The notes beneath the pieces are model-generated. The model did no database searches. It saw only the letters and a list, made by a program, of their open reading frames with translations, and was not told the origin of the DNA. 64,000 nt of DNA from an uncultured Actinomycetes bacterium (GTDB lineage Bacteria > Actinomycetota > Thermoleophilia > Gaiellales > Gaiellaceae), in contig CAVTZA010000004.1 in the NCBI GenBank assembly GCA_963739085.1, positions 29,042 to 93,041 of the forward strand. Reading direction: 5' to 3'. A program made the position numbers and the translations under genes. Within the stretch, counting starts at the first letter, position 1, and every line of letters begins with the position of its first letter. Shown one piece after another: positions 1,748 through 64,000 of the stretch.

Positions 1748-1902
1748 CTTGGAATGAGCTCCTGAGTCACCGGAACGCGCTGAACGGCGCGATGCGCCGT
1801 CCTCAGTCGCGCCCATATCTGACGATATGAACGCTCCCTGCGTCCTAGCCTCGCGCCGCCCATCGCGCCCCGGTAACGAGGACTCACCCCAAGGCGACCT
1901 CC

Positions 1903-5926: not shown

Positions 5927-5936
5927 AGGTCGTTTC

Positions 5937-7157
5937 GTGGCGAGGCCTCGTCGTCGGGGTGCGATGGGTGGTGCGAGCAAGGACGCAGGGAGCGTCCGTG
6001 TGGCTGGGACGCGTAGCGTGGGCGCGACTGAGGACGCCGGCTCGCGCCGCCTAGCGCGGCCCGACGGCCGGTCTCGTCGCCGCGACGGCATCACGCTGGC
6101 CGTAAAGGATCTGTTCGACACGGCAGGACTGGCGACGACCTACGGCTCGGTGATCTTCGCCGAGCACGTTCCGGAGCGGAGTGCCGAGGCCGTCGTCCGC
6201 CTCGAGGCCGGCGGCTATGCCAACGTCGGCAAGACGAACCTGCACGAGTTCGCCTACGGCGTCACCTCTCAGAACGCCCACTTCGGCACCGTGCCGAACC
6301 CGGCCGCGCCGGGGCGCATTGCGGGCGGGTCGAGCGGGGGCTCGGCGGCCGCGCTCGCCGCGGGCCTCGCCGACGCGGCGCTCGGGTCCGACTCCGGCGG
6401 CTCGATCCGGATCCCCGCCGCGTGCTGCGGCATCGTCGGCTTCAAGCCGACCTTCGACCTCGTCCCGCTCGACGGCTGCTTCCCACTCGCGCCCAGCTTC
6501 GACCACGCCGGCCCGATGGCCCGGTCGGTCGCCGACTGCACGGCGATGATGCGCGTCCTCGCGCCCGAATTCGAGCCGGAGCGCGAGGTCGCCCTGGACG
6601 AGGTCGAGGTAGGGGTCGCGTGGACGGCGCTCGCCGACCCGCTCGTGCGCACGTGCGTCGAGCGCGCCGCCGGGCACTTCCCGAAGGCGCGGCCGGCCGA
6701 CTTCCCGCTCCCCGACGGGCTCCAGCACGCGTTCATGCGCGAGGTCGCCGACGTGCACCGCAGCCTGTTTCCGGAGCGCTCCGAGGACTACGGCGAGAAC
6801 GTGCGCGCCAAGGTGCAGCGCTGCTTCGACGTGACCGAGGCAGAAGCCGAGGCATCGCGCCGATCGCGCGAGGCGTACCGCACGGCCGCGGAGAGCGCTC
6901 TCGACGGCGCCGACCTGCTCCTCGTGCCCACGCTTGCAATGGTCGCGCCGCCGGCCGACGTGGACGAGATCGACATCCGGTTGCGCGTGATCCAGCTCAC
7001 GATCCCGTTCAACGCGCTCGGGTGGCCGGCGCTGGCGCTCCCATGCGGCGCGGCTGAGGACGGCCTGCCGGCCTCCGTCCAGCTCGTGGGCCGGCCGGGC
7101 GACGACGCGCTCGTCCTCGCGGTCGGGGCGGCGCTCGAAGCCGCTCTGCGCAAGTAA
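5937..7157 (+). CDS. amidase-signature family amidase, probably 5'-truncated or chimeric
   Basis: AVKDLFDTAGLATTYGS and GGSSGGSAAALAAG amidase-signature motifs. The first about 45 codons are encoded by repeat A1. The stop TAA lies inside palindrome D1. Confidence 0.7.
   Translation: MARPRRRGAMGGASKDAGSVRVAGTRSVGATEDAGSRRLARPDGRSRRRDGITLAVKDLFDTAGLATTYGSVIFAEHVPERSAEAVVRLEAGGYANVGKTNLHEFAYGVTSQNAHFGTVPNPAAPGRIAGGSSGGSAAALAAGLADAALGSDSGGSIRIPAACCGIVGFKPTFDLVPLDGCFPLAPSFDHAGPMARSVADCTAMMRVLAPEFEPEREVALDEVEVGVAWTALADPLVRTCVERAAGHFPKARPADFPLPDGLQHAFMREVADVHRSLFPERSEDYGENVRAKVQRCFDVTEAEAEASRRSREAYRTAAESALDGADLLLVPTLAMVAPPADVDEIDIRLRVIQLTIPFNALGWPALALPCGAAEDGLPASVQLVGRPGDDALVLAVGAALEAALRK
5949..6070. 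repeat. long-hairpin intergenic repeat, family A, copy A1
   Basis: About 122 bp align almost base-for-base with 41494..41617 (cctcgtcgtcggggtgcgatggg...caaggacgcagggag...ctgggacgcgtagcgtggg...gaggacgcc...agcgcggcccgacgg). Starts just after the TAG of the preceding small ORF. Confidence 0.85.
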
Positions 7158-7171
7158 CAGACTGTTACTTG
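7151..7171. repeat. 21-bp perfect palindrome D1 (CAAGTAACAG-A-CTGTTACTTG)
   Basis: Perfect 10+1+10 palindrome. Near-identical 22-bp copies occur at 59974..59995 and 60031..60052. Confidence 0.9.
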
Positions 7172-7198
7172 GCGTCGCTCGTTCGACTGACTGCGTAG

Positions 7199-7396
7199 CA
7201 GCTGTGGGTCTCGTACAACGACGGCGCCACCTGGTCGCGGGTGACGCTGGACGACCAGGGCGGCGGCCGCTTCACGGGCGAGCTCGACCATCCGGCCAAC
7301 ACGGCGCGCAAGTACGTGTCGCTGAGGCTGGAGGCGACCGACTCGGGCGGCAGCAGCCTCAACCAGACGATCATCCGCGCCTACGGGCTCGAATGA
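7199..7396 (+). pseudogene. orphan C-terminal fragment of a peptidase-like secreted protein
   Basis: A 65-codon open frame with no upstream part reads LWVSYNDGATWSRVTLDDQGGGRFTGELDHPANTARKYVSLRLEATDSGGSSLNQTIIRAYGLE*. It resembles the C-terminal domain of large actinobacterial S8-type peptidases. An in-frame TAG lies at 7196. Confidence 0.5.
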
Positions 7397-7458
7397 TCCG
7401 AGGCTGACCTCAGATGCGGCGGCGCTCCCCCACGGGGCGCCGCCGCTTCACCCTTCTG

Positions 7459-9863: not shown

Positions 9864-9867
9864 CGGC

Positions 9868-13217: not shown

Positions 13218-13668
13218 CGATTCTCTCCTTCTCCATCGCTTCGATCTTCTCCAGACGCCTCACGTAGCGCTCGCCGCCGTCGAAGCGCGCGCCGAGGAAG
13301 GCGCGCACGAGCTCGCCCGCGAGCTCTGCGCCGACGACCTCCGAGCCGAGGCACAGGACGTTCATGTTGTCGTGCTCTACCCCCTGGTGCGCTGAATATG
13401 TGTCGTGACACACAGCGGCTCTTACCCCGGGGAGTTTGCTGGCGGCGACCGAGGCGCCAACGCCCGAGCCGCAGACGAGCACTCCGCGCTCCGCACCGCC
13501 TCCGATCACGGCTTCGCCCAGTCTCCTGGCGACGTCGGGGTAGTCGACCCGCGGCATGGGTGCGTCGACCCCGAGATCGAGCGCCTCGTGCCGCAGCGCT
13601 TCGAGCTCCGCGAAGATCGTCTCGCGGAGCTTCACGCCGCGATGGTCGAACGCAACGGCAACCCTCAT
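13210..13668 (-). CDS. rpiB: ribose-5-phosphate isomerase B
   Basis: MRVAVAFDHRG... and VLVCGSGVGASVAASK, the RpiB/LacAB fold. The ATG at 13668 is preferred over the TTG at 13674. Overlaps the tal start by 8 nt. Confidence 0.85.
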   Translation of the reverse strand: MRVAVAFDHRGVKLRETIFAELEALRHEALDLGVDAPMPRVDYPDVARRLGEAVIGGGAERGVLVCGSGVGASVAASKLPGVRAAVCHDTYSAHQGVEHDNMNVLCLGSEVVGAELAGELVRAFLGARFDGGERYVRRLEKIEAMEKERIDA

Positions 13669-13691
13669 GACCAAATCGTTACGTTACAGCT

Positions 13692-41486: not shown

Positions 41487-41639
41487 GATGGAGCCTCGTC
41501 GTCGGGGTGCGATGGGCGGTGCGTGGCAAGGACGCAGGGAGTCTCCGTGTATCTGGGACGCGTAGCGTGGGGGCGACCGAGGACGCCGCCACGCGCCGTC
41601 CAGCGCGGCCCGACGGCACAGAGCTTCATTCTGAAGCCA
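41478..41639. repeat. long-hairpin repeat family A, copy A2 (with terminal inverted repeats), inside the dpp operon
   Basis: The core matches A1. The outer arms TGGTTTCAGGATGGAGC (41478-41494) and GCTTCATTCTGAAGCCA (41623-41639) are complementary at 14 of 17 positions, and all three mismatches would be G-U on the + strand. Confidence 0.85.
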
Positions 41640-41648
41640 GCTCCCTGC

Positions 41649-49993: not shown

Positions 49994-51148
49994 CTAGGTT
50001 CCGAGCGAGAAGATCACCGGATATTCCGCGGTGTTGTTCGACGTCCGCGTCTCGCCCTTCACCGGCTGCACCTCGACCTTGATCGACGTCCGCGTCGCGA
50101 ACGGCACCTGACCGATGTTGCGGAAGGTCACGGTCTGACGCTCGCCGGGATTGATGATCGGCACCGTCTGCCGCTTCACGATGTTCTGCGGCTGCTTCTG
50201 AATCGTGAGCGTGACGGGCACCCGTACCTCCTGCGAGCAGCCGGTGTCCTCGATCGTGACGGCGAAGCCGAGGTTCTCCGAGGCCTCGACGGTGTTGAGC
50301 GTCTGCGTCGACAGCTCCGTTCCGGACGGTAAGGCCTTGAGCGACACGAGGCCGGTACCGCGCGGGCTGCACTGACTGCCGCCCGTCGAGGCTCCCCGGA
50401 CGCGTTGCCAGATCGCGGACATCAGGCGCGGCGTCGCCAGATCGGGGTCGCGTAAGAAGTTCGAGTCGGGCACCTGGACGCCCCGGACGTCCTGCTCGGC
50501 GAGCACCGCCCGTGCCGGCTCCTTGAAGAGGTCGTCCCAGACGACGTCGCTCGCGAGCAGCCGCCTCGCCTGGGCGGCGAGGGCCTGTCCGGCCGTGCTC
50601 GCGCTCTTGATCTGCGCGGTCTGCCCGAACGCGCGCTCGAGCCCGCGCAGGCCGCTCACCCGCAGCTGCAGCGACTCGACCACGGCGGGATGGACGTCGC
50701 GCAACGCGCCGGGCGGGTCGATGTCCTCGGCCTTGGCGACACCCTGCTCCTGCTGCTGGGCGAGCCCGGAGAGCTGCTGGCGGATGTCGGCCAGCTTCGC
50801 GCCCGGGTCCGTGAGCAGGTTGTTGAGCCGCCGGCCGATCTGCTCCGACTGAACCGCGACCTCGCCGGTGTCGTCCATGTAGTTCTCGTATGTGTCGCGC
50901 TTCTGCGAGCCGCGGCAGCTCTGCACCGCGAACACCAGCAGCACGACGATGAGGATCGCGAACGCGATCAGCCCCACGAGCCGCAGCAGCGGCGTGACGC
51001 CGGCCGGCGGCCTGATCGGAGGGCGCCCGCCGCGCCGGACCGGCCGCTTCTCCTGAGCCTCGGTTGTAGCGGGCTCGTCCTCGAAGAAGTCGAACTCGAT
51101 GTCGCTGTCTTGCTCGCTCATGGCAATCGGCGCCGCCGGATCTGGCAC
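49994..51148 (-). CDS. membrane-anchored hypothetical protein with C-terminal CARDB-like domain
   Basis: Acidic N-terminus, one TM helix (LLRLVGLIAFAILIVVLLVFAV), and a C-terminal beta-rich region ending ...GETRTSNNTAEYPVIF. An alternative start is ATG 51121. Confidence 0.55.
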   Translation of the reverse strand: MPDPAAPIAMSEQDSDIEFDFFEDEPATTEAQEKRPVRRGGRPPIRPPAGVTPLLRLVGLIAFAILIVVLLVFAVQSCRGSQKRDTYENYMDDTGEVAVQSEQIGRRLNNLLTDPGAKLADIRQQLSGLAQQQEQGVAKAEDIDPPGALRDVHPAVVESLQLRVSGLRGLERAFGQTAQIKSASTAGQALAAQARRLLASDVVWDDLFKEPARAVLAEQDVRGVQVPDSNFLRDPDLATPRLMSAIWQRVRGASTGGSQCSPRGTGLVSLKALPSGTELSTQTLNTVEASENLGFAVTIEDTGCSQEVRVPVTLTIQKQPQNIVKRQTVPIINPGERQTVTFRNIGQVPFATRTSIKVEVQPVKGETRTSNNTAEYPVIFSLGT

Positions 51149-51219
51149 TGTAACTGGACGGTCGGCCGAGAACGGCGCAAAAAGGATTCTCGCCGCCGGG
51201 AGCCAACCCGGAGGCCACC

Positions 51220-52821
51220 GTGTCGACCACGCTCGTCTCCCCGCCGGGCTCGGAGCTCGTCCTCGGCCGCTACCGCCCGCTCCGCCCGCTGGGGAGCGGC
51301 GGCGCGGGATCGGTCTGGCTCGCCCGTGACGAGGCGTCGGGCCTCGACGTCGCGCTCAAGCTCGTCCCACGCGAGGGCAAGCCCGCCGCCCGCGCCGAGC
51401 GCGAGGCCGCCACCGCCGCCCGGTTGAGGCACCCCAACTGCCTGCGCGCGTTCGCGCTCGCCCACGACGAGCGCCACGTCTACATCGCGTACGAGTACGT
51501 CCCGGGCCACACCCTCCGTCAGCGCATGCGCGAGGGCACGCTCACCGACCGGGAGCTCGTCGAGGCGGCGGCGCAGGTGCTCGACGGCCTTGCGCACGCG
51601 CACCGGAACGGGATCGTGCACCGCGACGTCAAGCCGTCGAACGTCCTGCTGGAGGACGGCGAGGCGATCCACGCGCGACTGTCCGACTTCGGCCTCGCCC
51701 ACTTCGAGGAGGCCGAGACGCTCACGGCGCAGGGCGACGTGCCCGGCACGCTCGCGTACATCTCGCCCGAGCGCCTCCGCGGGAATCCGGGCACGCCTGC
51801 CGCGGACATCTGGGCGGTCGGTGTCCTGCTCTGGGAGGCGCTCGCCGCACGGCATCCCTTCCTGACCGGATCGCCCGTGGAGATGGCCCGGAAGATCGAG
51901 GTGGGCCCGCCGCCGCTGAGCCAGGCGCGGCCGGACCTCCCCGACGCCCTCGTCAAGCTCGTCGCACGCGCCACGGCGCTCGAGCCGGCGCGAAGACCCG
52001 CAGCCGACCGCCTGGCCGCCGGCCTACGACACTCGGTCGAGACCCCGCGAAAGCGGCAGGCGCCGGCGAAGAGGGAGCAACACGCTCAGAGCCCGCTCCC
52101 GGACGTCCACAGGATCACGGCGCCGATCCTGGCGGCCGTGGTCACCGGCTGGAGCACCTCCGCCTTGCCCTTCTTCCCGACCGGCTGGCCGCTCGGCCTC
52201 GCCGCCCTCGCCGCCGGGCTGACCGCGCTCCGGCCGCGGGCAGGTCTCGCATTGGCGCTCACCGCGCCTGTGTTCCCGCTCGGAAACCTCTCGGAGGGCG
52301 TCGCACTGCTCTATGCAGCCGCCGCCACGGTCTGGCTCGCGCTGTCATGGCGTACTCCACGCGAGGCGCTCCTGCCGGCGATCGGACCGCTCCTCGGCCT
52401 CGTCTCGCTGCTGGCGCTGCTCCCCCTGCTGCTGGGCACCGTCACGAGCACGACGCGCCGCGCCCTCTACGCTGCCATGGCGGTCGTTCTGGCGACGATC
52501 GTCGCGGGCATCCGTCGCTCGCCTCTTCCGCTAACGGGAGAGGGGCCGCCGCTCGTACCGCTCGCGGGGCTCAGCGGACCGTCGGAAGCGGCGAGACGGC
52601 TGCTCGACGCCGTTCCCGCCGTCCTCGCCTTCGAGCTGGTCGTGCTGGCGGTCGCGGCGGCCGCGCTGCCGTACATCGCGAGACGGAGTCTCTGGGAGCT
52701 CGCAGGCTTCGGCGCGGCGCTGATGGCGGCGCTCCTGCTGCCCGATCCGCGCATCGCCGCGCTGCCCGCCGTCGCGGCCGTCTGGCTGACCTGTGGGGTG
52801 TACGCGCTGAAGCGTGGGTGA
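51220..52821 (+). CDS. Ser/Thr protein kinase fused to a polytopic membrane domain
   Basis: Hanks kinase motifs (GSGGAGSVWLA, VALK, HRDVKPSNVLL, DFGLA, ISPE) are followed by about 250 aa with multiple hydrophobic helices. Confidence 0.85.
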   Translation: MSTTLVSPPGSELVLGRYRPLRPLGSGGAGSVWLARDEASGLDVALKLVPREGKPAARAEREAATAARLRHPNCLRAFALAHDERHVYIAYEYVPGHTLRQRMREGTLTDRELVEAAAQVLDGLAHAHRNGIVHRDVKPSNVLLEDGEAIHARLSDFGLAHFEEAETLTAQGDVPGTLAYISPERLRGNPGTPAADIWAVGVLLWEALAARHPFLTGSPVEMARKIEVGPPPLSQARPDLPDALVKLVARATALEPARRPAADRLAAGLRHSVETPRKRQAPAKREQHAQSPLPDVHRITAPILAAVVTGWSTSALPFFPTGWPLGLAALAAGLTALRPRAGLALALTAPVFPLGNLSEGVALLYAAAATVWLALSWRTPREALLPAIGPLLGLVSLLALLPLLLGTVTSTTRRALYAAMAVVLATIVAGIRRSPLPLTGEGPPLVPLAGLSGPSEAARRLLDAVPAVLAFELVVLAVAAAALPYIARRSLWELAGFGAALMAALLLPDPRIAALPAVAAVWLTCGVYALKRG

Positions 52822-52851
52822 CCGCGCTTCCCCCTCGTTACCCTTCCGCGC

Positions 52852-53628
52852 GTGAGCATGCTTCGCACGATCGAGGGCAAGATCGAGTCCCTCTTCGAGG
52901 GCGTCTTCGGCCGGGCGTTCCGCACCCACGTGCAGCCAGTCGAGATCGCGCGCAGACTGGCGAAGGAGATGGACGACCACCGCACGGTGTCGGTCTCGCG
53001 GGTGTATGTCCCGAACGAGTACACGATCTACCTCGCGCCGCAGGACCGGGAGCAGTTCGAGAGCTACGAGAGCTCGCTGCTGATCGAGCTCCAGGACTAC
53101 CTCTCCGAGCAGGCCAGGCGGGAGCGCTACGCCCTGCTCTCCCCGCCGAAAGTGCTGATGGAGACGGACGAGGACCTGGACATGGGCTGGTTCGGAATCG
53201 CGACGCGGATGGTGCAGCCGAAGGGCCGCCCGCCGGAGGAAGGGACGCCCGCGCCACAGGAGGAGCCGGGCGCGACGATGGTCTACAAGCCGAAGGCGCC
53301 GCCGCCGACCGAGGTCGCCACCCCGGAGGAGCTCGGCGTCGAGCGCGAGATCGTCTCGCTCACCGCTGACGGCGAGCGGCACGTGCTCGACAAGCGCAGC
53401 GTCGTCCTCGGCCGCTCACGGGATTGCGACATCCGCATCGACGACCCCAACGTCTCGCGCCACCACGCCGAGATCCGCCAGGAGGGCGCGACCTACTGGA
53501 TCGTCGATCTCGGCTCGACCAACGGCATGGAGGTCAACGGTCGCCGCGTCAAGCGCGCGAAGCTCGAGGATGCCGACCGCATCAACCTGGGCTCGACCGA
53601 GCTCACCTTCGGCCGCAGCTTCCAGTGA
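52852..53628 (+). CDS. fhaA: FHA-domain protein FhaA (DUF3662 + FHA)
   Basis: N-terminal LRTIEGKIESLFEGVFGRAFRTHVQPVEIARRLAKEMDDHR, and a C-terminal FHA domain (VVLGRSRDCDIRIDDPNVSRHHAEI...STNGMEVNG). Confidence 0.9.
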   Translation: MSMLRTIEGKIESLFEGVFGRAFRTHVQPVEIARRLAKEMDDHRTVSVSRVYVPNEYTIYLAPQDREQFESYESSLLIELQDYLSEQARRERYALLSPPKVLMETDEDLDMGWFGIATRMVQPKGRPPEEGTPAPQEEPGATMVYKPKAPPPTEVATPEELGVEREIVSLTADGERHVLDKRSVVLGRSRDCDIRIDDPNVSRHHAEIRQEGATYWIVDLGSTNGMEVNGRRVKRAKLEDADRINLGSTELTFGRSFQ

Positions 53629-54110
53629 TCGCCGTCTCCACGGTCGACGTCGAGGAGCTGCTGCTCGGGTTGAAGATCGCCTTCCTCGTGCTCCTGTACC
53701 TGTTCATCTGGCGGATCGTCCGCACGGCCAGCAAGGATCTCCGTCTGCCGCAGGAGAGCTTCATCCTCGACCCCGAGCAAGCTGCCGCGCTGCGCAAGCC
53801 GGAGGAGTTCCAGACGGGCGAGCTGGTCGTGATCCAGAGCCCGGCCCTCGTGGAGGGCGAGCGGTACACGCTCAACTCTGCGGCGCTCACGATCGGTCGC
53901 AGCCGCGAGAACGACGTCTCGCTCGACGCGGACGAGTTCGCCTCCTCTCGGCACGCGCGCGTCGAGCCCAGGCGCGACGGGGTCTGGCTCGAAGACGTGG
54001 ACTCCACGAACGGCACCTTCCTCAACGGCGCGCAGGTCAACCGGCCGCGGGCGCTGAAGCCGGGGGACGTGATCCGCGTAGGTGAGACCGACCTGAGGTT
54101 CGAGCAGTGA
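53625..54110 (+). CDS. fhaB: FHA-domain protein FhaB (membrane anchor + FHA)
   Basis: GTGA overlap with fhaA. TM helix (LKIAFLVLLYLFIW) and an FHA domain (TIGRSRENDVSLDADEFASSRHARV...STNGTFLNG). Confidence 0.85.
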   Translation: MIAVSTVDVEELLLGLKIAFLVLLYLFIWRIVRTASKDLRLPQESFILDPEQAAALRKPEEFQTGELVVIQSPALVEGERYTLNSAALTIGRSRENDVSLDADEFASSRHARVEPRRDGVWLEDVDSTNGTFLNGAQVNRPRALKPGDVIRVGETDLRFEQ

Positions 54111-55129
54111 CGCTCCGCACCGCACACCTGACCCACCCGGGCCGCAAGCGCCGCCACAACGAGGACTCGTACATTCACGAGCCGCCGCTGTTCGCGGTCG
54201 CGGACGGCATGGGCGGCGCGAAGGCCGGCGAGGTCGCCTCCGGCCTGGCGGTCGACGCGCTGAGGCTTCGCCCGGACATCGGCGGCGACGCCAAGGCCTA
54301 CGTGGTCGACCTGATTCAGGAGGCGAACCGGCGCGTCTACACGCGCGCCACCGAGGACGCGTCCGCCGCGGGCATGGGAACGACGATGACCGTCGCGCTG
54401 GTCGACGACGACGCCGGCCGCGTGACGATCGGGCACGTGGGCGACTCGAGGGCGTACCGCGTCCGCGACGGGAAGCTCGAGCAGCTGACCGACGACCACT
54501 CGCTCGTCGGCGAGCTGATCCGCAGCGGCAAGCTCACGCGCGAGGAGGCCCACGTGCACCCCCAGCGATCGGTGATCACACGCGCGCTCGGCACCGATCC
54601 GGACGTCGACGTCGACACCTTCGTCGTCGACGCCCGACCGGGCGACACGTTCCTGATCTGCTCCGACGGGCTCAGCTCGATGGTCAGCGACCAGACGATC
54701 CTCGACGTCGTGCGCGAGCACCCGCGCGACTTGCAGGCGGCGGCGAAGGGGCTGATCGCGGCGGCGAACCGCGGCGGCGGCGACGACAACATCACGGTCG
54801 TCGTCTTCGCCCTCGACGCCGAGGGTGAGGTCGACGGCGACGGCGCGACCCTACGCATGGAGGCGATTCCGCCGCCGAGCGAGGAGGAGAGCGAGTCCGA
54901 CGACGAGGACACGCTCTCCGGCCTGGAAGCCGCCCCCGCGGTCGGGACGATGGTCGTGAGCGTCGACGAGCTTCAGCAGCAGGCAGCGGCCGACGAGGAC
55001 GCCGCGGACGAGCACCGCCGCGCGTGGCGGGGAAGCGTGCTCGCACTGGTCGCCCTGCTCGCCTTCCTCGCCGTGCTGGCGCTGCTGCTGCTGTGGGCGG
55101 CCGCGAACGGCGGGATTGCGGTGCCGTGA
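54107..55129 (+). CDS. pstP: PP2C-family Ser/Thr phosphatase
   Basis: Motifs RKRRHNEDS, VADGMGG, GDSRAY and CSDGL...GGGDDNITVV, with a C-terminal TM helix. Confidence 0.9.
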   Translation: MTLRTAHLTHPGRKRRHNEDSYIHEPPLFAVADGMGGAKAGEVASGLAVDALRLRPDIGGDAKAYVVDLIQEANRRVYTRATEDASAAGMGTTMTVALVDDDAGRVTIGHVGDSRAYRVRDGKLEQLTDDHSLVGELIRSGKLTREEAHVHPQRSVITRALGTDPDVDVDTFVVDARPGDTFLICSDGLSSMVSDQTILDVVREHPRDLQAAAKGLIAAANRGGGDDNITVVVFALDAEGEVDGDGATLRMEAIPPPSEEESESDDEDTLSGLEAAPAVGTMVVSVDELQQQAAADEDAADEHRRAWRGSVLALVALLAFLAVLALLLLWAAANGGIAVP

Positions 55130-56391
55130 GCTACCGGAACCGCGAGCTGCTCAACCTGACGCTCGTCGGCGTGCTGACCGCGATCGGCTTCGCCAGCGTG
55201 TACATCGCCCGGCAGGAGGTCGTCTCGACGAGCTCGCTGTCGTACGCGGGCTTCTTCTTCACGCTCTACCTGGCCGCGCACATCGTTGCGCGCGTCTGCG
55301 TGCCGAACGCCGACCCGTACCTGCTGCCGATCGCCGCCCTGCTCACCGCGATCGGCGTGACGGAGATCTACCGCCTGAACCCCGACGACGCCTTCCGCCA
55401 GGGGCTGTGGGTCGTGATCGGCGTCGGGCTCTTCTCGTTCACGCTCTTCATCCTCCGCCGCGACTTCCGGCGGATCGAGAGCTACCGCTACCTGTTCGGC
55501 CTGACCGCGCTGATCCTGCTCGTCCTGCCCGCGCTGCCCGGGATCGGGCGGACCATCAACGGCGCGAACCTCTGGGTGGGGATCGGGCCGTTGCAGCTCC
55601 AGCCCGGCGAGCTGGCAAAGATCATGCTGATCGTCTTCCTGGCCGGCTACCTGCGCGAGAAGCGCGAGGTGCTCGCCCAGGGGCGGCTGAAGGACTTCGG
55701 CCCGCTGCTCGTGATCTGGGGCGGCGCGATGCTCGTCCTCTTCCAGACCAACGACCTGGGCAGCGGTCTTCTCTACTTCGGGATCTTCCTCGCGATGCTC
55801 TACGTCGCGACCGCCCGCGGCTGGTTCGTGGTCGCCGGCGCCGCCCTCTTCCTCGTCGGCGCGTCCGTCCTCTACCAGATCGTCCCGCGCGTCCAGGAGC
55901 GCGTGACGGTGTGGTGGGACCCCTGGCCGCACGCGCAGGACGAGGGCTACCAGATCGTCCAGTCCGCCTACTCGATGGGGAACGGCGGCTTCGGGGGCAC
56001 CGGGCTCGGCAAGGGGACGTTCACGACGGTGCAGGGCGACTACGTGATCCCGTTCCTGAAGACCGACTTCATCTACTCCGCGCTCGCGCAGGAGCTCGGG
56101 CTCGTCGGCTCCGCCGCGCTGCTGCTCGTCTACATGGTGTTCGTGCTGCGCGGCTTCAGGATCGCGCTGCTCGCGAGCGACGGCTTCTCGAAGCTGCTCG
56201 CCGTGGGGCTGACGTTCGGCTTCGCCCTGCAGACGTTCATCATCGTCGGCGGCGTGCTGCGGGTGATCCCGCTGACCGGAATCACGCTGCCCTTCGTCAG
56301 CTACGGCGGCTCGAGCCTGCTCGCGAACTTCCTCATGCTCGCGGGCCTCCTCCTCGTCTCCAACCGGGCCAACGCCCGCCGCGCGCCATGA
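55126..56391 (+). CDS. rodA: FtsW/RodA/SpoVE family peptidoglycan glycosyltransferase
   Basis: GTGA overlap with pstP. Polytopic SEDS protein (LQPGELAKI, TDFIYSALAQELG, PLTGITLPFVSYGGSS). Confidence 0.9.
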   Translation: MSYRNRELLNLTLVGVLTAIGFASVYIARQEVVSTSSLSYAGFFFTLYLAAHIVARVCVPNADPYLLPIAALLTAIGVTEIYRLNPDDAFRQGLWVVIGVGLFSFTLFILRRDFRRIESYRYLFGLTALILLVLPALPGIGRTINGANLWVGIGPLQLQPGELAKIMLIVFLAGYLREKREVLAQGRLKDFGPLLVIWGGAMLVLFQTNDLGSGLLYFGIFLAMLYVATARGWFVVAGAALFLVGASVLYQIVPRVQERVTVWWDPWPHAQDEGYQIVQSAYSMGNGGFGGTGLGKGTFTTVQGDYVIPFLKTDFIYSALAQELGLVGSAALLLVYMVFVLRGFRIALLASDGFSKLLAVGLTFGFALQTFIIVGGVLRVIPLTGITLPFVSYGGSSLLANFLMLAGLLLVSNRANARRAP

Positions 56392-57881
56392 ATCGCCAGA
56401 TCACCCGTGTCGCCGTGGTCGCACTCGTGCTGCTGTCCGCCTTGATCGTCGCCACGACCTACTGGCAGAGCTGGGCGGCGGCCAGCCTCGCCGACCGGCA
56501 GGACAACGCGATCCAGCGCGTCGCGCAGTTCCAGATCAAACGCGGGCAGATCTACGCGGCGGACGGCCGCACGCTGCTCGCGCGCCGCATCGCGCGGAAG
56601 GTGCAGGGCAAGACGCTCTACTTCCGCCGCTACCCCTACGGCGGCCTCTTCGCGCACGCCGTCGGCTACTCCACGCAGGTGCGCTCGCGTGCCGGCCTCG
56701 AGCGCTCGATGAACGACTACCTCACGGCCTCGAACGCGAACCTGAGCACCGTCCTCGACCGGACGTTCGACAAGCTCCGCGGCGCGACCATCGAGGGCAA
56801 CGACGTGATCCTGACGCTGCGCCCCGGCGCCCAGCGGGTCGCCTACCAGCAGCTGGCAGGTCGCTGCGGGGCGGTCGTCGCGCTCGAGCCGAAGACCGGC
56901 CGCGTGCTGGTGATGGCGTCGTCGCCCACGTACGACCCCAACCTGATGGACCGGCCGGGCGGTTACGCGAAGATTCTCAGGACGAGGGCGCCGTGCACGT
57001 CGCCGTCGCCGCTCGTCAACCGGACGACCTTCGGGCAGTACATCCCCGGCTCGGTCTTCAAGGTCGTGACGGCATCGGCCGCCCTCGACACCGGCCGCTT
57101 CACGCCGGAGTCGTCGTTCGTCGATCCGGGTTACTGCGTCGAGTACGGCCGCAAGGTGACGAACTACTCCGACCAGAGCGGCCCGGAGGTGTTCGGCCGG
57201 GTCTCCTTGGTCCAGGCGCTCGTGAACTCGATCAACTCGGTCTTCTGCAACATCGGCAAGCAGATGGGGCCCAAGCCGATCGTCGACTACATGAAGCGCT
57301 ACGGCTTCTACTCGGTGCCGCCGCTCGAGACGCCCGTGAACGAGCGACGGGCGAGCGGCCTCTACAGCAAGGGCAAGCTGTTCGAGCCCGAGAACGCGGG
57401 CCAGGTCGACCCCGGGCGGCTCGCCTTCGGGCAGGAGCGGCTGCAGGTGACGCCGCTCCAGATGGCGATGGTGGCCGCCGGCGTCGCCAACAAGGGCGTC
57501 GTCATGGAGCCGTTCGTGGTGCAGAAGATCCGCGCGCCGGACGGTCAGACGATCCGCAAGACGAAGCCGCACGAGCTCGGCCGCGCGATCAGCCCGAAGA
57601 CGGCGGAGGAGCTCACCTCGATGATGACGCAGGTCGTCCAGAGCGGCACCGGCACCAACGCGCAGATCCCGGGCGTGACCGTGGCGGGCAAGACCGGCAC
57701 CGCCGAGACCGGTGTCGCGGGCCGCAACACGGTGTGGTTCATCACCTTCGCGCCCGCCGAGGATCCGAAGATCGCCGTCGCCGTCATGGTCGAGCAGCAG
57801 GACAGCACCGGCGGGCAGACGTCCGCTCCGATCGCAAAGGCCGTTTTGCAGGCACTTCTCCCGTCCCAGTCGAATACCTAA
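56388..57881 (+). CDS. pbpA: penicillin-binding protein (class B transpeptidase, PbpA-like)
   Basis: ATGA overlap with rodA. N-terminal anchor, plus SVFK (SxxK), SxN-type region (NSINS) and KTGT motifs. Confidence 0.9.
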   Translation: MNRQITRVAVVALVLLSALIVATTYWQSWAAASLADRQDNAIQRVAQFQIKRGQIYAADGRTLLARRIARKVQGKTLYFRRYPYGGLFAHAVGYSTQVRSRAGLERSMNDYLTASNANLSTVLDRTFDKLRGATIEGNDVILTLRPGAQRVAYQQLAGRCGAVVALEPKTGRVLVMASSPTYDPNLMDRPGGYAKILRTRAPCTSPSPLVNRTTFGQYIPGSVFKVVTASAALDTGRFTPESSFVDPGYCVEYGRKVTNYSDQSGPEVFGRVSLVQALVNSINSVFCNIGKQMGPKPIVDYMKRYGFYSVPPLETPVNERRASGLYSKGKLFEPENAGQVDPGRLAFGQERLQVTPLQMAMVAAGVANKGVVMEPFVVQKIRAPDGQTIRKTKPHELGRAISPKTAEELTSMMTQVVQSGTGTNAQIPGVTVAGKTGTAETGVAGRNTVWFITFAPAEDPKIAVAVMVEQQDSTGGQTSAPIAKAVLQALLPSQSNT

Positions 57882-57900
57882 CCTTGCGGATCAACGGGCC

Positions 57901-59820
57901 ATGGCCGTCCAGGACACCCTGATCAACACCCTCTTCGACGAGCGCTACCGGATCATCCGGCGGCTCGGATCGGGTGGGATGGCCAACGTCTACCTCGCCG
58001 AGGACGAAGAGCTCGGCCGCCGCGTGGCGATCAAGGTGCTCGACGAGAAGCATGCGATGGACGAGCAGTTCGTCGAGCGCTTCCGCCGCGAGGCCAAGAA
58101 CGCGGCCTCGCTCTCGCACCCGAACATCGTCTCGATCTACGACCGCGGCGAGGCAGAGGGCACGTTCTACATCGCCATGGAGTACGTCGAGGGCCGCACG
58201 CTCAAGGACCTGATCGTGGCGCACGGCCCGCTCCCGGTCGACCAGGCGGTCTCGTACGCGCGCCAGATCCTGAGCGCGCTCCGCTTCGCGCACCGGAAGG
58301 GCATCGTCCACCGCGACATCAAGCCGCACAACGTGCTCGTCGACGGCGACGGCCGGCTCAAGGTGACGGACTTCGGGATCGCGCGCGCGGGCGCCAGCCA
58401 GATGACCGAGGCGGGCTCGATCATCGGAACCGCGCAGTACCTCTCTCCCGAGCAGGCGCGCGGAGCACCGGTCGACCAGCGTTCCGACCTCTACTCCGTC
58501 GGCGTCGTGCTCAACGAGATGCTCACGGGCGCCGTGCCGTTCACCGGCGACACCCCGGTCGAGATCGCCATGAAGCACATCTCGGCGGTGCCGAAGCCGC
58601 CGTCGGCGAGCAGGCCCGACGTGCCCGAGGACCTCGACCTCGTCACGCTGCGCGCCCTCGCGAAGGACACGCGCGAGCGCTTCCAGACCGCCGAGGAGAT
58701 GGATTCCGAGCTCGGTCGTGTGCTCGCGGGGCTCAGCGTGACCGACGCGACCGCCGACGCCGCGACCGCCGTCCTCGCGGGAGCGGGGGTGTCCGACGCG
58801 GCCCCGACCGCCGTCGTGCGACGGCAAACACCGCCTCCCTATGCCCCGAGCGGCGGCTACCGCTACGACGAGCCGCCCCCGCCCGGACGCCGCTCGATCT
58901 GGCCTTGGCTGCTCGCGCTCGGCCTGGTCGTGGCCGCAGCCATCGCGGGGCTCTACGCGTACAACCGCATCCAGGACGAGCTCAACGCGAACAAGCCGGT
59001 CGCCGTCCCGTTGCTCGAGGGCAAGGAGGAGGCGCTCGCCGTGAACGACATCCTCGACCGGGATCTCGAGCCGCACGTGGTCCGCCAGTACCGGCCCGAC
59101 GACACCGAGAAGGGCAAGGTCTTCGACCAGGATCCGGAGGCGGGCGAGCGCATCGAGCGCGAGAACATCGTCACGATCTACGTCTCCCAGGGGAAACGGA
59201 AGGTCGACGTGCCGACCGTGAAGGGCCTCAGCGTGGCCGAGGCCGTCGCCCGCCTCAAGGACGCCGGGCTCAACGCCAATCCCGTCGAGGTCTTCTCGAC
59301 GCAGCCTGACGGCACGGTGATCGCGCAGGATCCGGCGCCGGGCAAGAGCGTGCCCGAGGGGACGACGGTGCGCATCAACGTCTCACAGGGCGAGAAGCCG
59401 ATCGCCGTGCCCGACGTGGTCGGGCTCAGCTACGAGGACGCGAAGGCCGCGCTCGAGGACGACGGCTTCATCGTCAAGCGCCAGGACCAGAACTCGAACA
59501 TCCAGCCGAACACGGTGATCGACACGAGCCCGAAGACCGGGGCAGGCCTCCAGCGCGGCGCAACGGTCACCGTGATCGTCTCCAAGGGCCCCAAGGACGT
59601 GGCCGTCCCGGAGGTCGAGGGCCTGGACGAGGAGAGCGCGCGCACGAAGCTCGAGGACGCCGGCTTCACGGTGTCGGTCAGCGACCAGCCGACGGACGAC
59701 CCCGCCAACGACGGCTTCGTGCTCGGGCAGGACCCGCAGGCCGGCGACCGCGCCGAGCCGGGCTCCTCCGTCGTCATCTTCGTCGGCCGTCTCTCCTCGG
59801 ACGAGCCGCCGCCGGAGTGA
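57901..59820 (+). CDS. pknB: Ser/Thr protein kinase PknB with four PASTA domains
   Basis: Kinase motifs [27 protein letters not shown] and LSPEQ. One TM helix and four PASTA repeats (VPLLEG..., VPTVKG..., VPDVVG..., VPEVEG...). Confidence 0.95.
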
Positions 59821-60895
59821 GCCGCAAGCCGCGCGTCGCCGTCGTGATGGGCGGCCGCTCGAGCGAGCACGAGATCTCGCTGGCGTCGGCCCAGTCGGTG
59901 CTCGCCGCCCTCGAGGGCGCCGGCTACGAGACCGTCGCGATCGAGATCGGCCGCAAGGGGCGGTGGGCGTTGGCAAGTAAACAGTCTGTTACTTGAACAG
60001 GAACACGCCGGCAGGGTGCGGGACCCGATCCAAGTAAACAGTCTGCAACTTGCGCCCGACGACGCCCGGAGAGACGCTGCCGATCCCGACCGACCGCGCG
60101 GTGCCCACGGCCCTCGCGGAGGTCGACGTCGTGATCCCCGTCCTGCACGGGCCGTTCGGGGAGGACGGGACGGTGCAGGGGCTGTTCGAGCTCGCGGACG
60201 TGCCCTACGTCGGGCCTGGCGTGACGGCCTCGGCCGTCTGCATGGACAAGGACCTGTTCAAGAAGATCCTGCGCGACAGCGGGATCCCCGTCGCACGGCA
60301 CCTGAAGGTACGCGAGGGCGACCCGTTCCAGAACCCGTACGGCTACCCGGTGTTCGTCAAGCCGGCGAGGCTCGGCTCGTCGGTGGGGATCACGAAGGCA
60401 CACGACCCCGACGAGCTCGAGGAAGGCCTCCGGCTCGCGTTCAGGCACGACGAGAAGGTGCTGGTCGAGGAGTTCATCGCGGGCATCGAGGTCGAGTGCA
60501 GCGTGCTCGGCAACTTCGACGACCCGATCGCCTCGCTCCCGGGCGAGATCGTGCCCAACGCCGAGTGGTACGACTTCTCGGCCAAGTACGACGAGGGTGG
60601 GATGGAGCTGATCGTCCCTGCGCGAATCCCGGACGACGCGCAGAAGCGCGTGCAGGACGTCTCGATCCAGGCGTTCCTCGCCACCGACTGCGAGGGGATG
60701 GCGCGCGCCGACTGCTTCGTGCGCGAGGACGGCGAGGTGATCGTCAACGAGCTCAACACGATCCCGGGCTTCACAGCCACGAGCGTCTACGCGAAGCTCT
60801 TCGAGGCCTCGGGGATTCCCTACGCCGAGCTGCTCGAGCGCCTGATCCAGCTCGGGATCGAGCGTCACGAGCGACGCTCTCGCCTCGAGTACTAG
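59817..60895 (+). pseudogene. ddl: D-alanine--D-alanine ligase interrupted by an 80-bp insertion
   Basis: The N-terminal 52 codons ([19 protein letters not shown]...GRKGRWAL) run into a TGA at 59994. The rest (RPTTPGETLPIP...VDVVIPVLHGPFGEDGTVQG...ELNTIPGFT...) resumes at 60050/60053 in another frame. GTGA overlap with pknB. Confidence 0.85.
59973..60052. repeat. 80-bp twin-palindrome insertion in ddl (D2 - 35 nt - D3), possible miniature mobile element
   Basis: CAAGTAAACAGTCTGTTACTTG (59974-59995) and CAAGTAAACAGTCTGCAACTTG (60031-60052) lie 57 bp apart. TTG is present both immediately before the insert and at its end. Related to D1 at 7151. Confidence 0.7.
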
Positions 60896-62352
60896 CCCGA
60901 CCGCACCTCGTCCACGTGCGCCGCGCCGCCGTCCGGCAGGCGCAGCCAGATCAGGTAGTAGCGGTAGGCCTTGTCCTTCGTGTCCAGGTCGAACGTGGTC
61001 GTGCTGCCAACCGGCTTCTCGGGCGAGACGTCGACGAAATCGCCACTCGGGCTGTTGCTCGCGCGGATCTTGGCCGGGAAGCCGGGCGTGTCCGTCGTCA
61101 CCGTCAGCTGGCTCAGTGCGGCGGCCGGTTGCGACTGGAGCACGATGCCGACGCCGGACTTCGTGAAGCTGCGGTAGTCCTCGGTCGTCCAGTAGGTGGT
61201 CGGATTGCCGTCGGTGGCCCGGGGGACCTCGGCGTCGTGCTCCCCGCCGGTTCCCTCGGGGTCGTAGGCCGCGATTCCCGTCAGCTTGGCGTTGGTCGCG
61301 GCGGCGGCGCCGCCACCGCCGCCCCCGTTCCTGTTCTGGACGCCGTCGACGAGCAGGTAGACCGCGCCGGCGAGCGCCAGCACGAGCAGCGCGAGCACGA
61401 TGAGGACGCCCGGGGCGCGCCGCGGCTTGCGCCGGACCGCGCGGCCGTTCCCGCGACCGCCGCCGTCTTGCCTTCGGGCAGCGGGAACGACGAGCGTCCG
61501 CTCGGCCTCGTCTCCACCGTAGCCGTCGATCGCGGCCAGCGAGGCCTCGAGGTCGTCGACGAGCTCGGCCATCGACGCGTGCCGGTCCTCAGGGTCTTTC
61601 GCCATCGCGCGCTGGACGACCAGGTCGAGCCGCGGCGGGCAGTCAGGCCGGCGGTCGAGCGCGCTCGGCGCAGGCTGGTGCACGTGCTGCATCGCGACCG
61701 CGACGAAGTTCTCGCCGTCGTAGGGCACGTCGCCCGTGATCAGCTCGAAGAGCACGACGCCGAGCGAGTAGACGTCCGTCTGGGCGTCGACGTCCCGCCC
61801 CTGCGCCTGCTCTGGAGCGATGTAGTCGCTCGTCCCCACCACGGCTCCGGTCTGTGTGACGCCGTCCACGTCCAACGAGCGGGCGATCCCGAAGTCGGTC
61901 ACCTTGGCGCGACCGTCGTCGTTGAGGATGACGTTCTGCGGCTTGACGTCGCGGTGGACGATCCCGCGCTGGTGAGCGAATCCGAGCGCGCGCGCGACCT
62001 GGATCGTCAGCCCGACCGCCTCGCGGACCGGAAGCGCGCCCTCGCGGTTGACGAGCTGCTTGAGGTTCTCGCCGTCGATGAACTCGAAGACGATGAACTG
62101 GCGTCCGCCCTGCTCGCCGCGGTCGATGACCGTGACGATGTTCGGGTGGGCGAGCTGAGCCACCGCCCGTGCCTCCCGGCGGAACCGCTCGACGTACTCG
62201 GGATCGAGCGTGTACTGCTCGTGGAGGATCTTCAGCGCGACGGGGCGTTCCAGCAGGCGGTCGCGCGCCTTGAAGACGCTGGACATTCCACCGGTACCGA
62301 CGAGCTCCTCGATCTCATAGCGCTCGACGATTACCTCGCCTACCACGGACAT
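60892..62352 (-). CDS. Ser/Thr protein kinase with extracellular discoidin/F5-8-type-C-like domain
   Basis: Kinase motifs GTGGMSSVFKA, HRDVKPQNVIL, DFGIA and IAPEQ. TM helix, then a C-terminal domain with NPTTYWTTEDY. 4-nt convergent overlap with ddl. Confidence 0.85.
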   Translation of the reverse strand: MSVVGEVIVERYEIEELVGTGGMSSVFKARDRLLERPVALKILHEQYTLDPEYVERFRREARAVAQLAHPNIVTVIDRGEQGGRQFIVFEFIDGENLKQLVNREGALPVREAVGLTIQVARALGFAHQRGIVHRDVKPQNVILNDDGRAKVTDFGIARSLDVDGVTQTGAVVGTSDYIAPEQAQGRDVDAQTDVYSLGVVLFELITGDVPYDGENFVAVAMQHVHQPAPSALDRRPDCPPRLDLVVQRAMAKDPEDRHASMAELVDDLEASLAAIDGYGGDEAERTLVVPAARRQDGGGRGNGRAVRRKPRRAPGVLIVLALLVLALAGAVYLLVDGVQNRNGGGGGGAAAATNAKLTGIAAYDPEGTGGEHDAEVPRATDGNPTTYWTTEDYRSFTKSGVGIVLQSQPAAALSQLTVTTDTPGFPAKIRASNSPSGDFVDVSPEKPVGSTTTFDLDTKDKAYRYYLIWLRLPDGGAAHVDEVRSG

Positions 62353-62388
62353 GACGTTAGCGCGCAGAACGACGGGGTTAGGAGGATC

Positions 62389-63714
62389 CTACGCGCCGAG
62401 CGCGTGCTCGAGCGCGTCTTCCCAGACCGCGAGGGCCTCGTCCAGCTCGGCATCCGAGAGCACGAGCGGAGTCAGCACGCGGATGCAGTTCGAGTAGATG
62501 CCCGACTTCAGGAGCAGCAGCCCCCGACGTGCCGCCTCCTCGACGACCGCGGTCGCGAGCTCGGCGGCCGGCTCCTTGGTCGCGGGATCGCGGACGAGCT
62601 CGATCGCCAGCATCGCGCCGAGGCCACGGACGTCGCCGATTCGCGGCCAGCGCTCCTGCCAGGCGTGCATGCGGGCCCGCATCGTCTCGCCGAGGAAGGT
62701 CGCCCGCTCGCAGAGGTCCTCCTCGTCGATCACGTCGAGGACGGCCAGCGCGGCCGCCTGCGCGACCGGGTTGCCCACGTAGGTCCCACCGATCGCGGAG
62801 TCGCCGGGCGAGTCCATGATCTCGGCCTTGCCGATCACCCCGGAGAGCGGGAGCCCGGCGGCGATCGACTTGGCAACCGTCATCAGGTCGGGCTCGACAC
62901 CGTAGTGCTCGATCGCGAAGAGCTTGCCGGTGCGGCCGAACCCGGTCTGCACCTCGTCGACCACGAGCACGATCCCGTGGCTGTCGCAGATCGCGCGCAC
63001 GCCCTCCATGAACTCCGGCGGCGCCACCTGGAAGCCGCCCTCGCCCTGAACCGGCTCGATCACGATCGCGGCCACGGTCTCGGCCGCGACCTGCGTCACC
63101 AGCGCGCGCTCGAGCGCGTCGAGGGCGCCCCGCGCGTCCGGGCCGCGGTACTCCTGCGCGAACGGGACGCGGTAGACCTCGGGCGCGAAGGGGCCCAGCC
63201 CGGCCTTGTACGGGTGCGTCTTCGAGGTGAGCGAGAGCGAGAGCAGCGTCCGGCCGTGGAAGCCGCCCTCGAAGGCGATCACAGCCGGCCGGCCCGTATA
63301 GGAGCGCGCGAACTTGATCGCGTTTTCGATCGCCTCGGTGCCCGCGTTGAAGAACCCGGCCTTGGTCGGGCCCGCGATCGGGGCAAGCTCGCACAGGCGC
63401 TCGGCCAGCGTGACGTAGACCTCGTACGGGACGATGGTGAAGTCGGTGTGGCTGAAGTGCGAGAGCTGCTCCTGGGCGGCCTCGACGACCCGCGGGTGCG
63501 AGTGGCCGACGGCAAGGCAGCCCACGCCGCCGGCGAAGTCGATGAACGTGTTGCCGTCGACGTCGGTGAGAGTCGCGCCGCGGCCCTCTGCGACGACGAT
63601 CGGCAGGTAGATCGAGAGCGGCTCGGCGACGACCTTCTCCTTGCGCGCGAGGATCTCCCTGGACCGGGGCCCGGGGACTTCCGTGCGCAGCTCGATCGAC
63701 CTCGTCGTCGCCAT
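62389..63714 (-). CDS. gabT: 4-aminobutyrate aminotransferase (class III PLP aminotransferase)
   Basis: ATG at 63714. Motifs DVDGNTFIDFAGGVGCLAVGHSHP, LVVDEVQTGFGRTG and MTVAKSI (PLP Lys). Confidence 0.85.
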   Translation of the reverse strand: MATTRSIELRTEVPGPRSREILARKEKVVAEPLSIYLPIVVAEGRGATLTDVDGNTFIDFAGGVGCLAVGHSHPRVVEAAQEQLSHFSHTDFTIVPYEVYVTLAERLCELAPIAGPTKAGFFNAGTEAIENAIKFARSYTGRPAVIAFEGGFHGRTLLSLSLTSKTHPYKAGLGPFAPEVYRVPFAQEYRGPDARGALDALERALVTQVAAETVAAIVIEPVQGEGGFQVAPPEFMEGVRAICDSHGIVLVVDEVQTGFGRTGKLFAIEHYGVEPDLMTVAKSIAAGLPLSGVIGKAEIMDSPGDSAIGGTYVGNPVAQAAALAVLDVIDEEDLCERATFLGETMRARMHAWQERWPRIGDVRGLGAMLAIELVRDPATKEPAAELATAVVEEAARRGLLLLKSGIYSNCIRVLTPLVLSDAELDEALAVWEDALEHALGA

Positions 63715-63760
63715 CGCGGCGGACGATAGCTGGACCGCCGGACCCGCCCTAGTAGGAGGA

Positions 63761-64000
63761 CTAGCCGACCTCGAGCCGCTCGATCGTGACCTCGTCGCTC
63801 GGCTGGTCACGCGGGTCGCGCGGGACGTTCGAGATCGCATCGGCGACGTCCATGCCGGAGGTCACACGGCCGAAGACGGTGTGCTTCCCGTCGAGCCATG
63901 GGCACGCGTCGGCGACCACGATGAAGAACTGGCTGCCGTTGGTGTTCGGGCCGGCGTTGGCCATCGCGAGCGCGCCGCGCTCGACCTTGTTCGGGTTGAT
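63761..64000 (-). CDS. cyclophilin-type peptidyl-prolyl isomerase, C-terminal part (5' end outside window)
   Basis: The motifs [15 protein letters not shown] and [11 protein letters not shown] are present. The frame continues to the window edge. Confidence 0.85.

Follow-up and report, generated by a model that had tools for sequence, protein, structure and literature searches.

A split ddl gene in a Gaiellaceae genome probably holds an ancient, translated doublet of a dispersed 21-bp palindromic repeat

The gene for D-Ala-D-Ala ligase (ddl) appears interrupted in a 64,000-nucleotide (nt) stretch of DNA from an uncultured member of the Gaiellaceae (order Gaiellales, phylum Actinomycetota; contig CAVTZA010000004.1), the whole of which is referred to here as the window. 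The gene starts with a GTG at 59817 that overlaps the end of pknB, and its N-terminal coding part (59817..59972, plus strand, frame 0) consists of 52 codons up to GRKGRWAL, the last being a leucine TTG at 59970-59972; in tblastn searches with the orthologues from loci L004 and L001, residues 1-55 align here. Past this TTG, frame 0 reads ASKQSVT and runs into a premature TGA at 59994..59996 (plus strand). The rest of the conserved Ddl sequence (RPTTPGETLPIP...) can be read from 60050/60053 in a frame other than that of the N-terminus, and this C-terminal coding part (frame 2, 60053..60895, plus strand, with its stop at 60893-60895 included) has been recorded as P0006, an open reading frame (ORF) of 281 amino acids (aa) beginning at the TTG at 60050. 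The 80-nt insert in between (59973-60052) is made up of a G, the near-palindrome CAAGTAAACAGTCTGTTACTTG, 35 nt and a second near-palindrome, CAAGTAAACAGTCTGCAACTTG, and its deletion yields a 332-aa ORF. A solitary, perfect 21-nt palindrome, CAAGTAACAGACTGTTACTTG, is found between convergent genes at 7151..7171, where its TAA (7155-7157) is the stop codon of an amidase-like ORF (5937..7157) ending in ...EAALRK. An earlier note on this DNA had described the ddl frames, the 80-nt insert, the near-palindromes and the perfect copy at 7151-7171, and these sequence statements all hold. Its further claim, that an insertion had itself split ddl, is not borne out, the block being ancestral to the Ddl clade and in frame in every orthologue with the block that was examined, an outcome that the note had itself listed as refuting its claim. 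With a probability of about 0.75, the block is an ancient and normally translated doublet of a 21-bp palindromic repeat specific to the Gaiellales, inherited vertically and in frame.

The first palindrome of the doublet (59974..59995) corresponds to the 21-nt family consensus, CAAGTAACAGTCTGTTACTTG, with one extra A in the run at 59979-59981, and this extra base constitutes the first frame shift in ddl, from frame 0 to frame 1, of which the premature TGA is the product. A spacer follows (59996..60030, plus strand) that has 35 nt in the window and 33 nt in all orthologues; read in frame 1 it gives EQEHAGRVRDPI, the 3' portion of which, GCGGGACCCGA, is common to the window and its closest relative (contig L126). 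The second palindrome (60031..60052) has the same extra A, and its right arm is GCAAC in the window, as it is in L001, L003 and L126. Frame 1 is open through the whole block (30 residues), while frames 0 and 2 are closed within it, and the frame-1 stretch at 59980..60060 (plus strand) encodes 27 residues homologous to an in-frame loop of orthologous Ddl proteins. The second frame shift, from frame 1 to frame 2, lies at 60058..60064 (plus strand), where the window reads GACGACG, one base more than the GAGACG or GGGACG of the orthologues. The G+C content is 70.5% in the window, 52.5% in the 80-nt block and 69% in the spacer, which identifies the palindromes as the A/T-rich part of the block (13 A/T of 21 in the consensus). 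No match to the palindrome, even at <=3 mismatches, occurred in dinucleotide-preserving shuffles of the window (n=100); an Rfam scan of the entire window returned no family, and for its composition the block has an unremarkable predicted RNA fold (z = -1.6).

The identity of the restored product as Ddl is given by proteins with PF01820, PF07478 and PF02222 that are 73-94% identical to it over the full length, and ddl is likewise placed after pknB in four relatives. The restored protein matches thousands of Ddl homologues, the closest of which have 357-360 aa and not 332. Alignment of this product, a check proposed in the earlier note, has revealed an equivalent in-frame segment in the orthologous Ddl proteins: exactly at the break these have an extra 25-32 aa with two SN(S/T/R)(L/V) repeats, as in P0001 (RWSL-ASNSLLLDQKTPEQAGSNPGNSLQLAPE-TPGETLPIP), and frame 1 of the window encodes the same segment. 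The segment could be delimited in 115 of 121 orthologues, with a doublet in 33, a singlet in 8 and none or a degenerate one in 74. In the DNA of five orthologous ddl loci both palindromes are in frame and 54 nt apart, forming a 75-nt palindrome-spacer-palindrome block in which xCA AGT AAC AGN CTG TTA/TCA/CAA CTT G is read twice (peptide x-S-N-x-L-x-L). As orthologues keep this 75-nt in-frame block, the ancestral gene was not the one that a clean 80-nt deletion produces. The closest relative, P0121 (contig L126, from a JGI metagenome), has an intact 357-aa ddl with 92% nucleotide identity outside the block, and falls in the same 90% cluster as the C-terminal ddl ORF of the window.

These comparisons bear directly on the proposal that a hairpin-ended miniature element of the IS200/IS605 or PATE type had recently inserted into ddl, with exact excision of 80 nt restoring the gene. 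Deleting 59973-60052 does give an ORF, the palindromes do belong to a dispersed family and their arms contain TTAC, but the in-frame block is present at the same site in orthologues down to ~73% identity. The flanking TTG is also not conserved: L001 has CTC before the block, hence the TTG...TTG pair is no target-site duplication. Furthermore, in 1.18 Mb of DNA adjoining palindromes, phmmer searches with the IS608 TnpA and the E. coli RAYT, query sequences verified against PDB entries, gave no IS200/IS605 TnpA or RAYT at E <=1. A recent insertion is therefore regarded as highly improbable, and of the mobile element idea the dispersed, insertion-type repeat family has stood, while the IS200/IS605 or RAYT transposase has not.

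The length of this region is naturally variable among Ddl structures. In the AlphaFold model of P0001, residues 54-87 are a coil with pLDDT <50 between a strand and a helix of the N-terminal domain, which fits the block occupying a disordered, tolerated surface loop of the ligase. Intact ORFs suggest that the in-frame palindromes are translated, and they are so with unusual codons: in the neighbouring genes (4425 codons) TTA, AGT and CTT have frequencies of 0.45, 0.68 and 2.3 per 1000. The block retains TTA in 3/5 and AGT and CTT in 5/5 of the relatives' ddl genes, and this retention of rare codons indicates that the constraint is on the nucleotides and not on the peptide.

When compared to four aligned orthologues, the ddl of the window has five extra bases, all within ~85 nt: one A in each palindrome (GTAAAC vs GTAAC), two bases in the spacer and one in the GACGACG after palindrome 2. 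The net result is two +1 shifts, from frame 0 to frame 1 before 59994 and from frame 1 to frame 2 after 60038. A single frame shift was ruled out as the cause, the block being open in frame 1 only and closed in the other two. With one A (59979-59981) and one base (60058-60064) removed, the gene encodes a Ddl of 358 aa, which can be aligned with P0121 and P0001 over the entire length. To judge from these alignments, ddl appears split only through extra bases that produce two net +1 shifts and are seen in this assembly only. No other frame shift was detected in ~22 kb of homologue-checked coding DNA of the window; the eleven neighbouring genes (49997-64000) align with their orthologues at full length and in one frame, and a further 8.6 kb of homologue-covered coding DNA is free of frame changes. 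With the rest of the window free of insertions and deletions (indels), random indel error is very unlikely and the cause must be local, the candidates being mixed alleles of a hypervariable stretch in the metagenome consensus, hairpin effects or a real mutation. An assembly artefact is possible for the extra bases only, not for the block.

A local consensus error in the hypervariable, hairpin-forming stretch of this metagenome-assembled genome (MAG) is given slightly better than even odds and is judged slightly likelier than a real, very recent inactivating allele. On this simplest reading, the organism would make a ~358-aa Ddl including the loop, and the extra bases would be local consensus errors. 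Several observations weigh against such an error. The remainder of the window is without indels, the palindrome at 7151 has been called without the extra A, and this base is absent from the Gaiellales and Thermoleophilia copies among the matches listed, many of which come from MFD MAGs (apparently long-read, to judge from naming and contig sizes). In addition, the 22-nt variant is present in two independent metagenome contigs: a metagenome scan located the exact 22-nt CAAGTAAACAGTCTGTTACTTG at 1195-1216 of L127 and 757-778 of L128, neither of them in ddl and one directly after a gene end. A systematic long-read artefact that adds an A to the motif was ruled out, the 7151 copy and the family copies among the matches listed being without it.

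The same observations speak for a frame-shifted allele that is real, with ddl just inactivated, for example if a 22-nt variant copy had converted the doublet; the organism would then rely on a second ddl, or would represent a dead-end lineage sampled in the metagenome. It is in favour of such an allele that both ddl palindromes have the extra A and the 7151 copy does not, that the two independent contigs carry the variant while the other listed copies lack it, so that it is no recurrent artefact of those assemblies, and that no further indel occurs in the ~22 kb checked. However, ddl is normally essential, the remaining gene is undecayed (94% aa identity to orthologues), the five extra bases are all confined to ~85 nt, and the truncated product P0006 has been recorded from a single contig only. 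A real allele is consequently a serious contender, at somewhat less than even odds. As a separate observation, the syntenic cell-wall cluster of L006 (contig_1485, ERZ25039550; positions 5000-14500) has many truncated or split genes, among them ftsW, a penicillin-binding protein (PBP) gene, pknB and an aminotransferase gene. L006 is a MAG, by naming and contig size probably long-read, and its split genes indicate that indel-rich consensus exists in this data source, the window itself being without such damage.

Were the break real, it might also be repaired in expression, whether by TTG-to-TTG bypassing of 80 nt, as the earlier note had suggested, by two successive +1 shifts, or by 59-aa and 281-aa fragments that assemble. 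As in T4 gene 60, matching codons are found across the gap, here identical TTG codons flanking the block, and a hairpin lies beside the take-off site, beginning 2 nt after the first TTG; moreover, the split falls in a loop predicted to be disordered and frame 1 is open over the entire block. Nonetheless, the gap measures 80 nt in ddl and 50 nt in gene 60, the codon after take-off is GCA with no stop adjoining the take-off codon, the stop lying 8 codons downstream, and relatives simply translate the segment. Bypassing is thus unnecessary, with the hallmarks of gene 60 missing. Neither shift has a slippery or stop-adjacent +1 motif, TTG 60050 is without a preceding Shine-Dalgarno-like sequence, and the fold of the block is, as stated above, ordinary for its composition. 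Recoding at ddl has no positive support and is very unlikely, and repair in expression by any of the three routes is hardly to be expected.

The palindromes of the window are members of a family. A genome scan with one genome per species and the pattern CAAGTAA(N0-1)CASNSTGTTACTTG detected CAAGTAACAGwCTGTTACTTG at no fewer than 119 sites, which have unrelated flanks and come from at least 94 MAGs. All of the matches listed, except one AT-rich chance match (Roseburia), are from Gaiellales, Gaiellaceae or Thermoleophilia MAGs, and the following proportions refer to these matches. The conserved unit is gcCAAGTAACAGwCTGTTACTTGgc, with A or T at the centre in 91/94 perfect palindromic copies. Stem complementarity beyond +-2 of the palindrome is at background level, and this lack of stem extension into the flanks indicates that pre-existing terminator hairpins were not the targets of insertion. 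The flanks show a weak preference for g/c but no fixed tetranucleotide, a trait of IS200/IS605-derived elements. Some 82% of copies are located outside long coding ORFs, very frequently a few bases from a stop codon or between convergent genes, and in one reading phase the palindrome's own TAA terminates the upstream ORF, as it does for many ORFs in other genomes and for the window ORF ending at 7157; apparently, an inserted element gives a gene a new 3' end. Singlets make up about 70% of sites and doublets roughly a quarter to a third. The start-to-start spacing of the doublets peaks at 54-56 nt (17/37), with 21/37 at 50-57 nt and a looser group at 66-101 nt, and the ddl block, at 54 nt, is therefore a typical doublet.

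No similarity was found among the spacers of different doublets. Unrelated sequences of a constant 33-35 nt recall a minimal CRISPR-like repeat-spacer-repeat with a repeat of 21-25 nt and a unique ~33-nt spacer, but arrays of three or more repeats do not occur, singlets account for ~70% of sites, the ddl spacer is vertically inherited and translated, and no cas-like family recurs among genes adjoining the sites. To our knowledge, the palindromic repeat is also shorter than any known CRISPR repeat, and this explanation can practically be set aside.

The search for further copies that the earlier note had proposed has thus revealed a dispersed family in related genomes with unrelated flanks, together with one orthologous filled/empty pair, in which a doublet with its spacer (~88 nt) is present in L078 and absent in L015; no target-site duplication is visible at this junction. 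The copy density is ~1 site cluster per 80 kb, or tens per genome, which is our own estimate from loci fetched for other purposes. All-against-all clustering disclosed no gene family common to most palindrome loci, and a literature search found nothing relevant on the motif or on Gaiellales palindromes. On the sequence comparisons made here, the family is a dispersed, insertion-type repeat that behaves like REP/REPIN, with tens of copies per genome, mostly just after stops. Two points count against this description, namely that no catalytic protein or insertion mechanism was found for the family and that the clean filled/empty pair is a single one.

Copies in frame within genes are not limited to ddl. 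Single palindromes in frame read (P/A)SN(S/R/T)(L/V)LL or QVT(D/Q)CYL, and their hosts include Mfd, PurL, a DnaE-like polymerase, CoaBC, biotin carboxylases (AccC-like), alanine racemase (Alr), HisC and a cyclase (the loci for Mfd through HisC being L011, L041, L101, L112, L068, L072, L026 and L106). In 5/9 copies checked the palindrome lies between Pfam domain matches, the others being within a domain match or at its edge. A comparable situation has been described for the Rickettsia palindromic elements (RPEs), repeats lying in frame within housekeeping genes that have no relation to one another, where their translation adds peptide segments that the protein fold tolerates (PMC10969869). In the Gaiellales the corresponding hosts are Ddl, Mfd, PurL, DnaE-like, CoaBC, AccC-like and Alr proteins, whose intact ORFs suggest that the palindromes are translated in frame, and these palindromes belong to an RPE-like class of in-frame elements that is functional and not homologous. 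RPEs differ in being ~100-150 bp long with a conserved peptide, whereas the Gaiellales unit has 21 bp (7 codons) or is a 75-bp doublet; they belong to another phylum and share no sequence similarity with the Gaiellales palindromes, whose nucleotide sequence is what remains constant, with changes that take place in step throughout a genome.

Such change in step is apparent from the palindrome core. Two symmetric cores occur, CAG.CTG at ~75% and CAC.GTG at ~18% of sites among the matches listed, besides rare half-variants. The core is genome-specific, with 89/97 within-genome pairs in agreement (0.60 expected); of 23 within-genome pairs with a C.G site, 17 have C.G in both. In ddl, the window and L001 have CAG.CTG, while L126 and L003 have CAC.GTG in both palindromes, and these states do not follow the ddl tree, ((window, L126), L001), L003. 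Together with the uniformity within genomes, the off-tree pattern indicates that resident copies are re-written or re-selected together, for which a trans-acting determinant or gene conversion is needed. A degenerate CAG.CTG doublet was also noted at 3364-3439 of L129, in the same genome as perfect CAC.GTG copies round a small gene (9922 and 10338), and it has the look of an older variant that has been in decay since the family core switched.

A candidate for the trans-acting determinant is encoded between palindromes. In seven genomes, palindrome pairs are 348-395 nt apart and the intervening stretches are mutually homologous, encoding a ~95-aa protein (M..APRI..LL.A..RLDD...PIAE..RRVG..A.RLGL.RPSY..VR.LVH...). 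These cassettes of palindrome, gene and palindrome are located at L008 4281-4665, L038 6172-6521, L044 5193-5563, L048 1572-1961, L051 4043-4438, L060 5695-6043 and L103 6282-6657, with others in L129-L134; tblastn detected two more copies of the gene in pattern-derived loci and none in the 64-kb window. At least 1988 proteins of soil metagenomes and Gaiellaceae MAGs belong to the family, and almost none of them has an annotation. Palindromes bracket the gene in 13/13 loci readable on both sides, and in L032 and L046, which have one end cut, a palindrome is present on the readable side; the 15 cassette loci represent at least 6 gene neighbourhoods. Upstream, the bracketing palindrome is 68-80 nt from the start codon, and downstream it is 0-45 nt from the stop codon; a short conserved motif (roughly CGGCACGGT) occurs between the upstream palindrome and the start codon.

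The model of the ~95-aa protein has five helices (pLDDT 85). No significant match was obtained in Pfam, NCBIfam, PHROGs or PDB, and a PDB sequence search with the family returned designed helical repeat proteins only. Sub-threshold Pfam matches are HTH_Tnp_Mu_2 (E 0.018) and HTH_32 (E 0.022), and the best Foldseek matches, all at E >1, are TnsABCD, phage Mu transpososome chains (including the Mu I-gamma DNA-binding subdomain) and DNA-bound Orc1/Cdc6. Such weak resemblance as there is points to transposase-type helix-turn-helix domains. Directly behind the invariant RPSY, where helix 3 begins, are two residues that vary with the core of the flanking palindromes: SYQR occurs with CAC.GTG in 6/6 loci and SYEQ or SYER with CAG.CTG in 8/8, one of these having one half-variant site (E-type vs Q-type against core, Fisher ~0.0014 over 15 loci, not phylogeny-corrected). 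Helix 3 is the putative recognition helix in the model and each palindrome a putative binding site of this helix-turn-helix-like protein, which would bind it as a symmetric dimer and might be the trans-acting determinant that keeps the copies matched. Such binding may serve the host, for example as a roadblock to transcription where genes end, or the element alone. Some findings detract from this proposal. The case for DNA binding comes from gene position and covariation, the 15 loci of the latter are not phylogenetically independent, and all fold matches to helix-turn-helix domains are below significance; furthermore, L008 combines SYEG with CAC.GTG, which breaks the simple E/Q rule, its syntenic relative L046 having SYEQ with CAG.CTG.

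A bound protein also raises the alternative that the palindromes are ordinary transcription-factor operators that arose by point mutation and are neither inserted nor mobile. Perfect dyad symmetry with an A/T centre, the copy ahead of the start codon of the ~95-aa gene and residues that co-vary with the DNA core would all agree with operators. More than 100 perfect 21-mers with 13 A/T, at mostly non-orthologous positions in genomes of ~70% G+C, make a base-by-base origin implausible, however, and alignments reveal block indels, both in the L078/L015 pair and in the singlet, doublet and empty states of ddl. As most sites are 3' of genes and not in promoters, this origin is considered improbable, if less so than a recent insertion into ddl.

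The arrangement of repeats around one gene invites comparison with the REPIN-RAYT system, where singlets and doublets with discrete spacings and non-identical spacers have been described, together with a repeat-flanked gene that co-evolves with the repeats (PMC3337134). The Gaiellales family resembles the REP and REPIN sequences of Pseudomonas and Enterobacteria in consisting of short palindromes scattered mainly outside genes and 3' of them, which form singlets and doublets with few discrete spacings and spacers that are never the same, and it likewise has one associated gene flanked by, and co-varying with, the repeats. The gene itself is different, RAYT genes being ~500 bp with HUH and Y motifs and the flanked gene of the Gaiellales encoding a ~95-aa, all-helical protein without HUH/Y1 motifs or a Y1_Tnp match. 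Additional differences from REPINs are a copy number in the tens and not hundreds per genome, copies that are also in frame within genes, and doublets that by centre base are ~15 direct and 6 inverted, although each repeat is a perfect palindrome and inverted orientation is therefore undefinable. As the defining RAYT test was negative, the family has been filed as a member of neither the REPIN-RAYT nor the RPE family. Bacterial miniature inverted-repeat transposable elements (Correia, ERIC, BOX and others) are similar as small, non-autonomous repeats at gene ends that supply stops or in-frame fusions, yet the Gaiellales unit is far shorter, has no terminal inverted repeats distinct from its core and was not seen with a target-site duplication. 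We know of no parent insertion sequence for the family.

It may be that the palindromes constitute an undescribed system, like REPIN-RAYT in its organisation and built on the ~95-aa helix-turn-helix-like protein in place of a Y1 transposase, whose 21-bp sites stay identical and are re-written in step with the specificity of the protein even within ddl, mfd, purL and coaBC, and that the 22-nt alleles of the window are a real product of this re-writing that breaks an essential gene; this is put forward tentatively, as rather less probable than otherwise. The palindromes have as their partner a small protein without annotation, whose putative recognition residues vary with the DNA core, and a directly testable protein-DNA specificity pair is available in EQ with CAG.CTG and QR with CAC.GTG. 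A candidate non-RAYT counterpart to REPIN-RAYT would bear on the persistence and homogenisation of short bacterial repeats. Conservation of the 21-bp family extends over an order of soil Actinomycetota about which little is known; the family is carried in frame in essential enzymes by means of the rarest codons of the genome, and has a core that changes coordinately within each genome. For annotation, gene callers will mis-annotate the ddl locus; the split ddl is not to be taken as a transposon-disrupted gene, and its correct product has ~358 aa, compared with the recorded 281-aa fragment P0006.

Other repeats have been noted in the window. Inverted repeats at 58011-58578 and 61684-62254 (72-76% complementary) are the kinase domains of pknB and of a convergent Ser/Thr kinase gene (60892..62352), and not a mobile element. 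An intergenic, G+C-rich repeat of ~110-125 nt represents a second family, present at 5960-6090, 41508-41640 and 1752-1866 (minus strand), with two direct copies that are 88% identical and a third that is inverted; the predicted folds are strongly structured and have no Rfam match. Related copies are also found in the Gaiellales loci L047, L125, L028, L066, L096 and L026.

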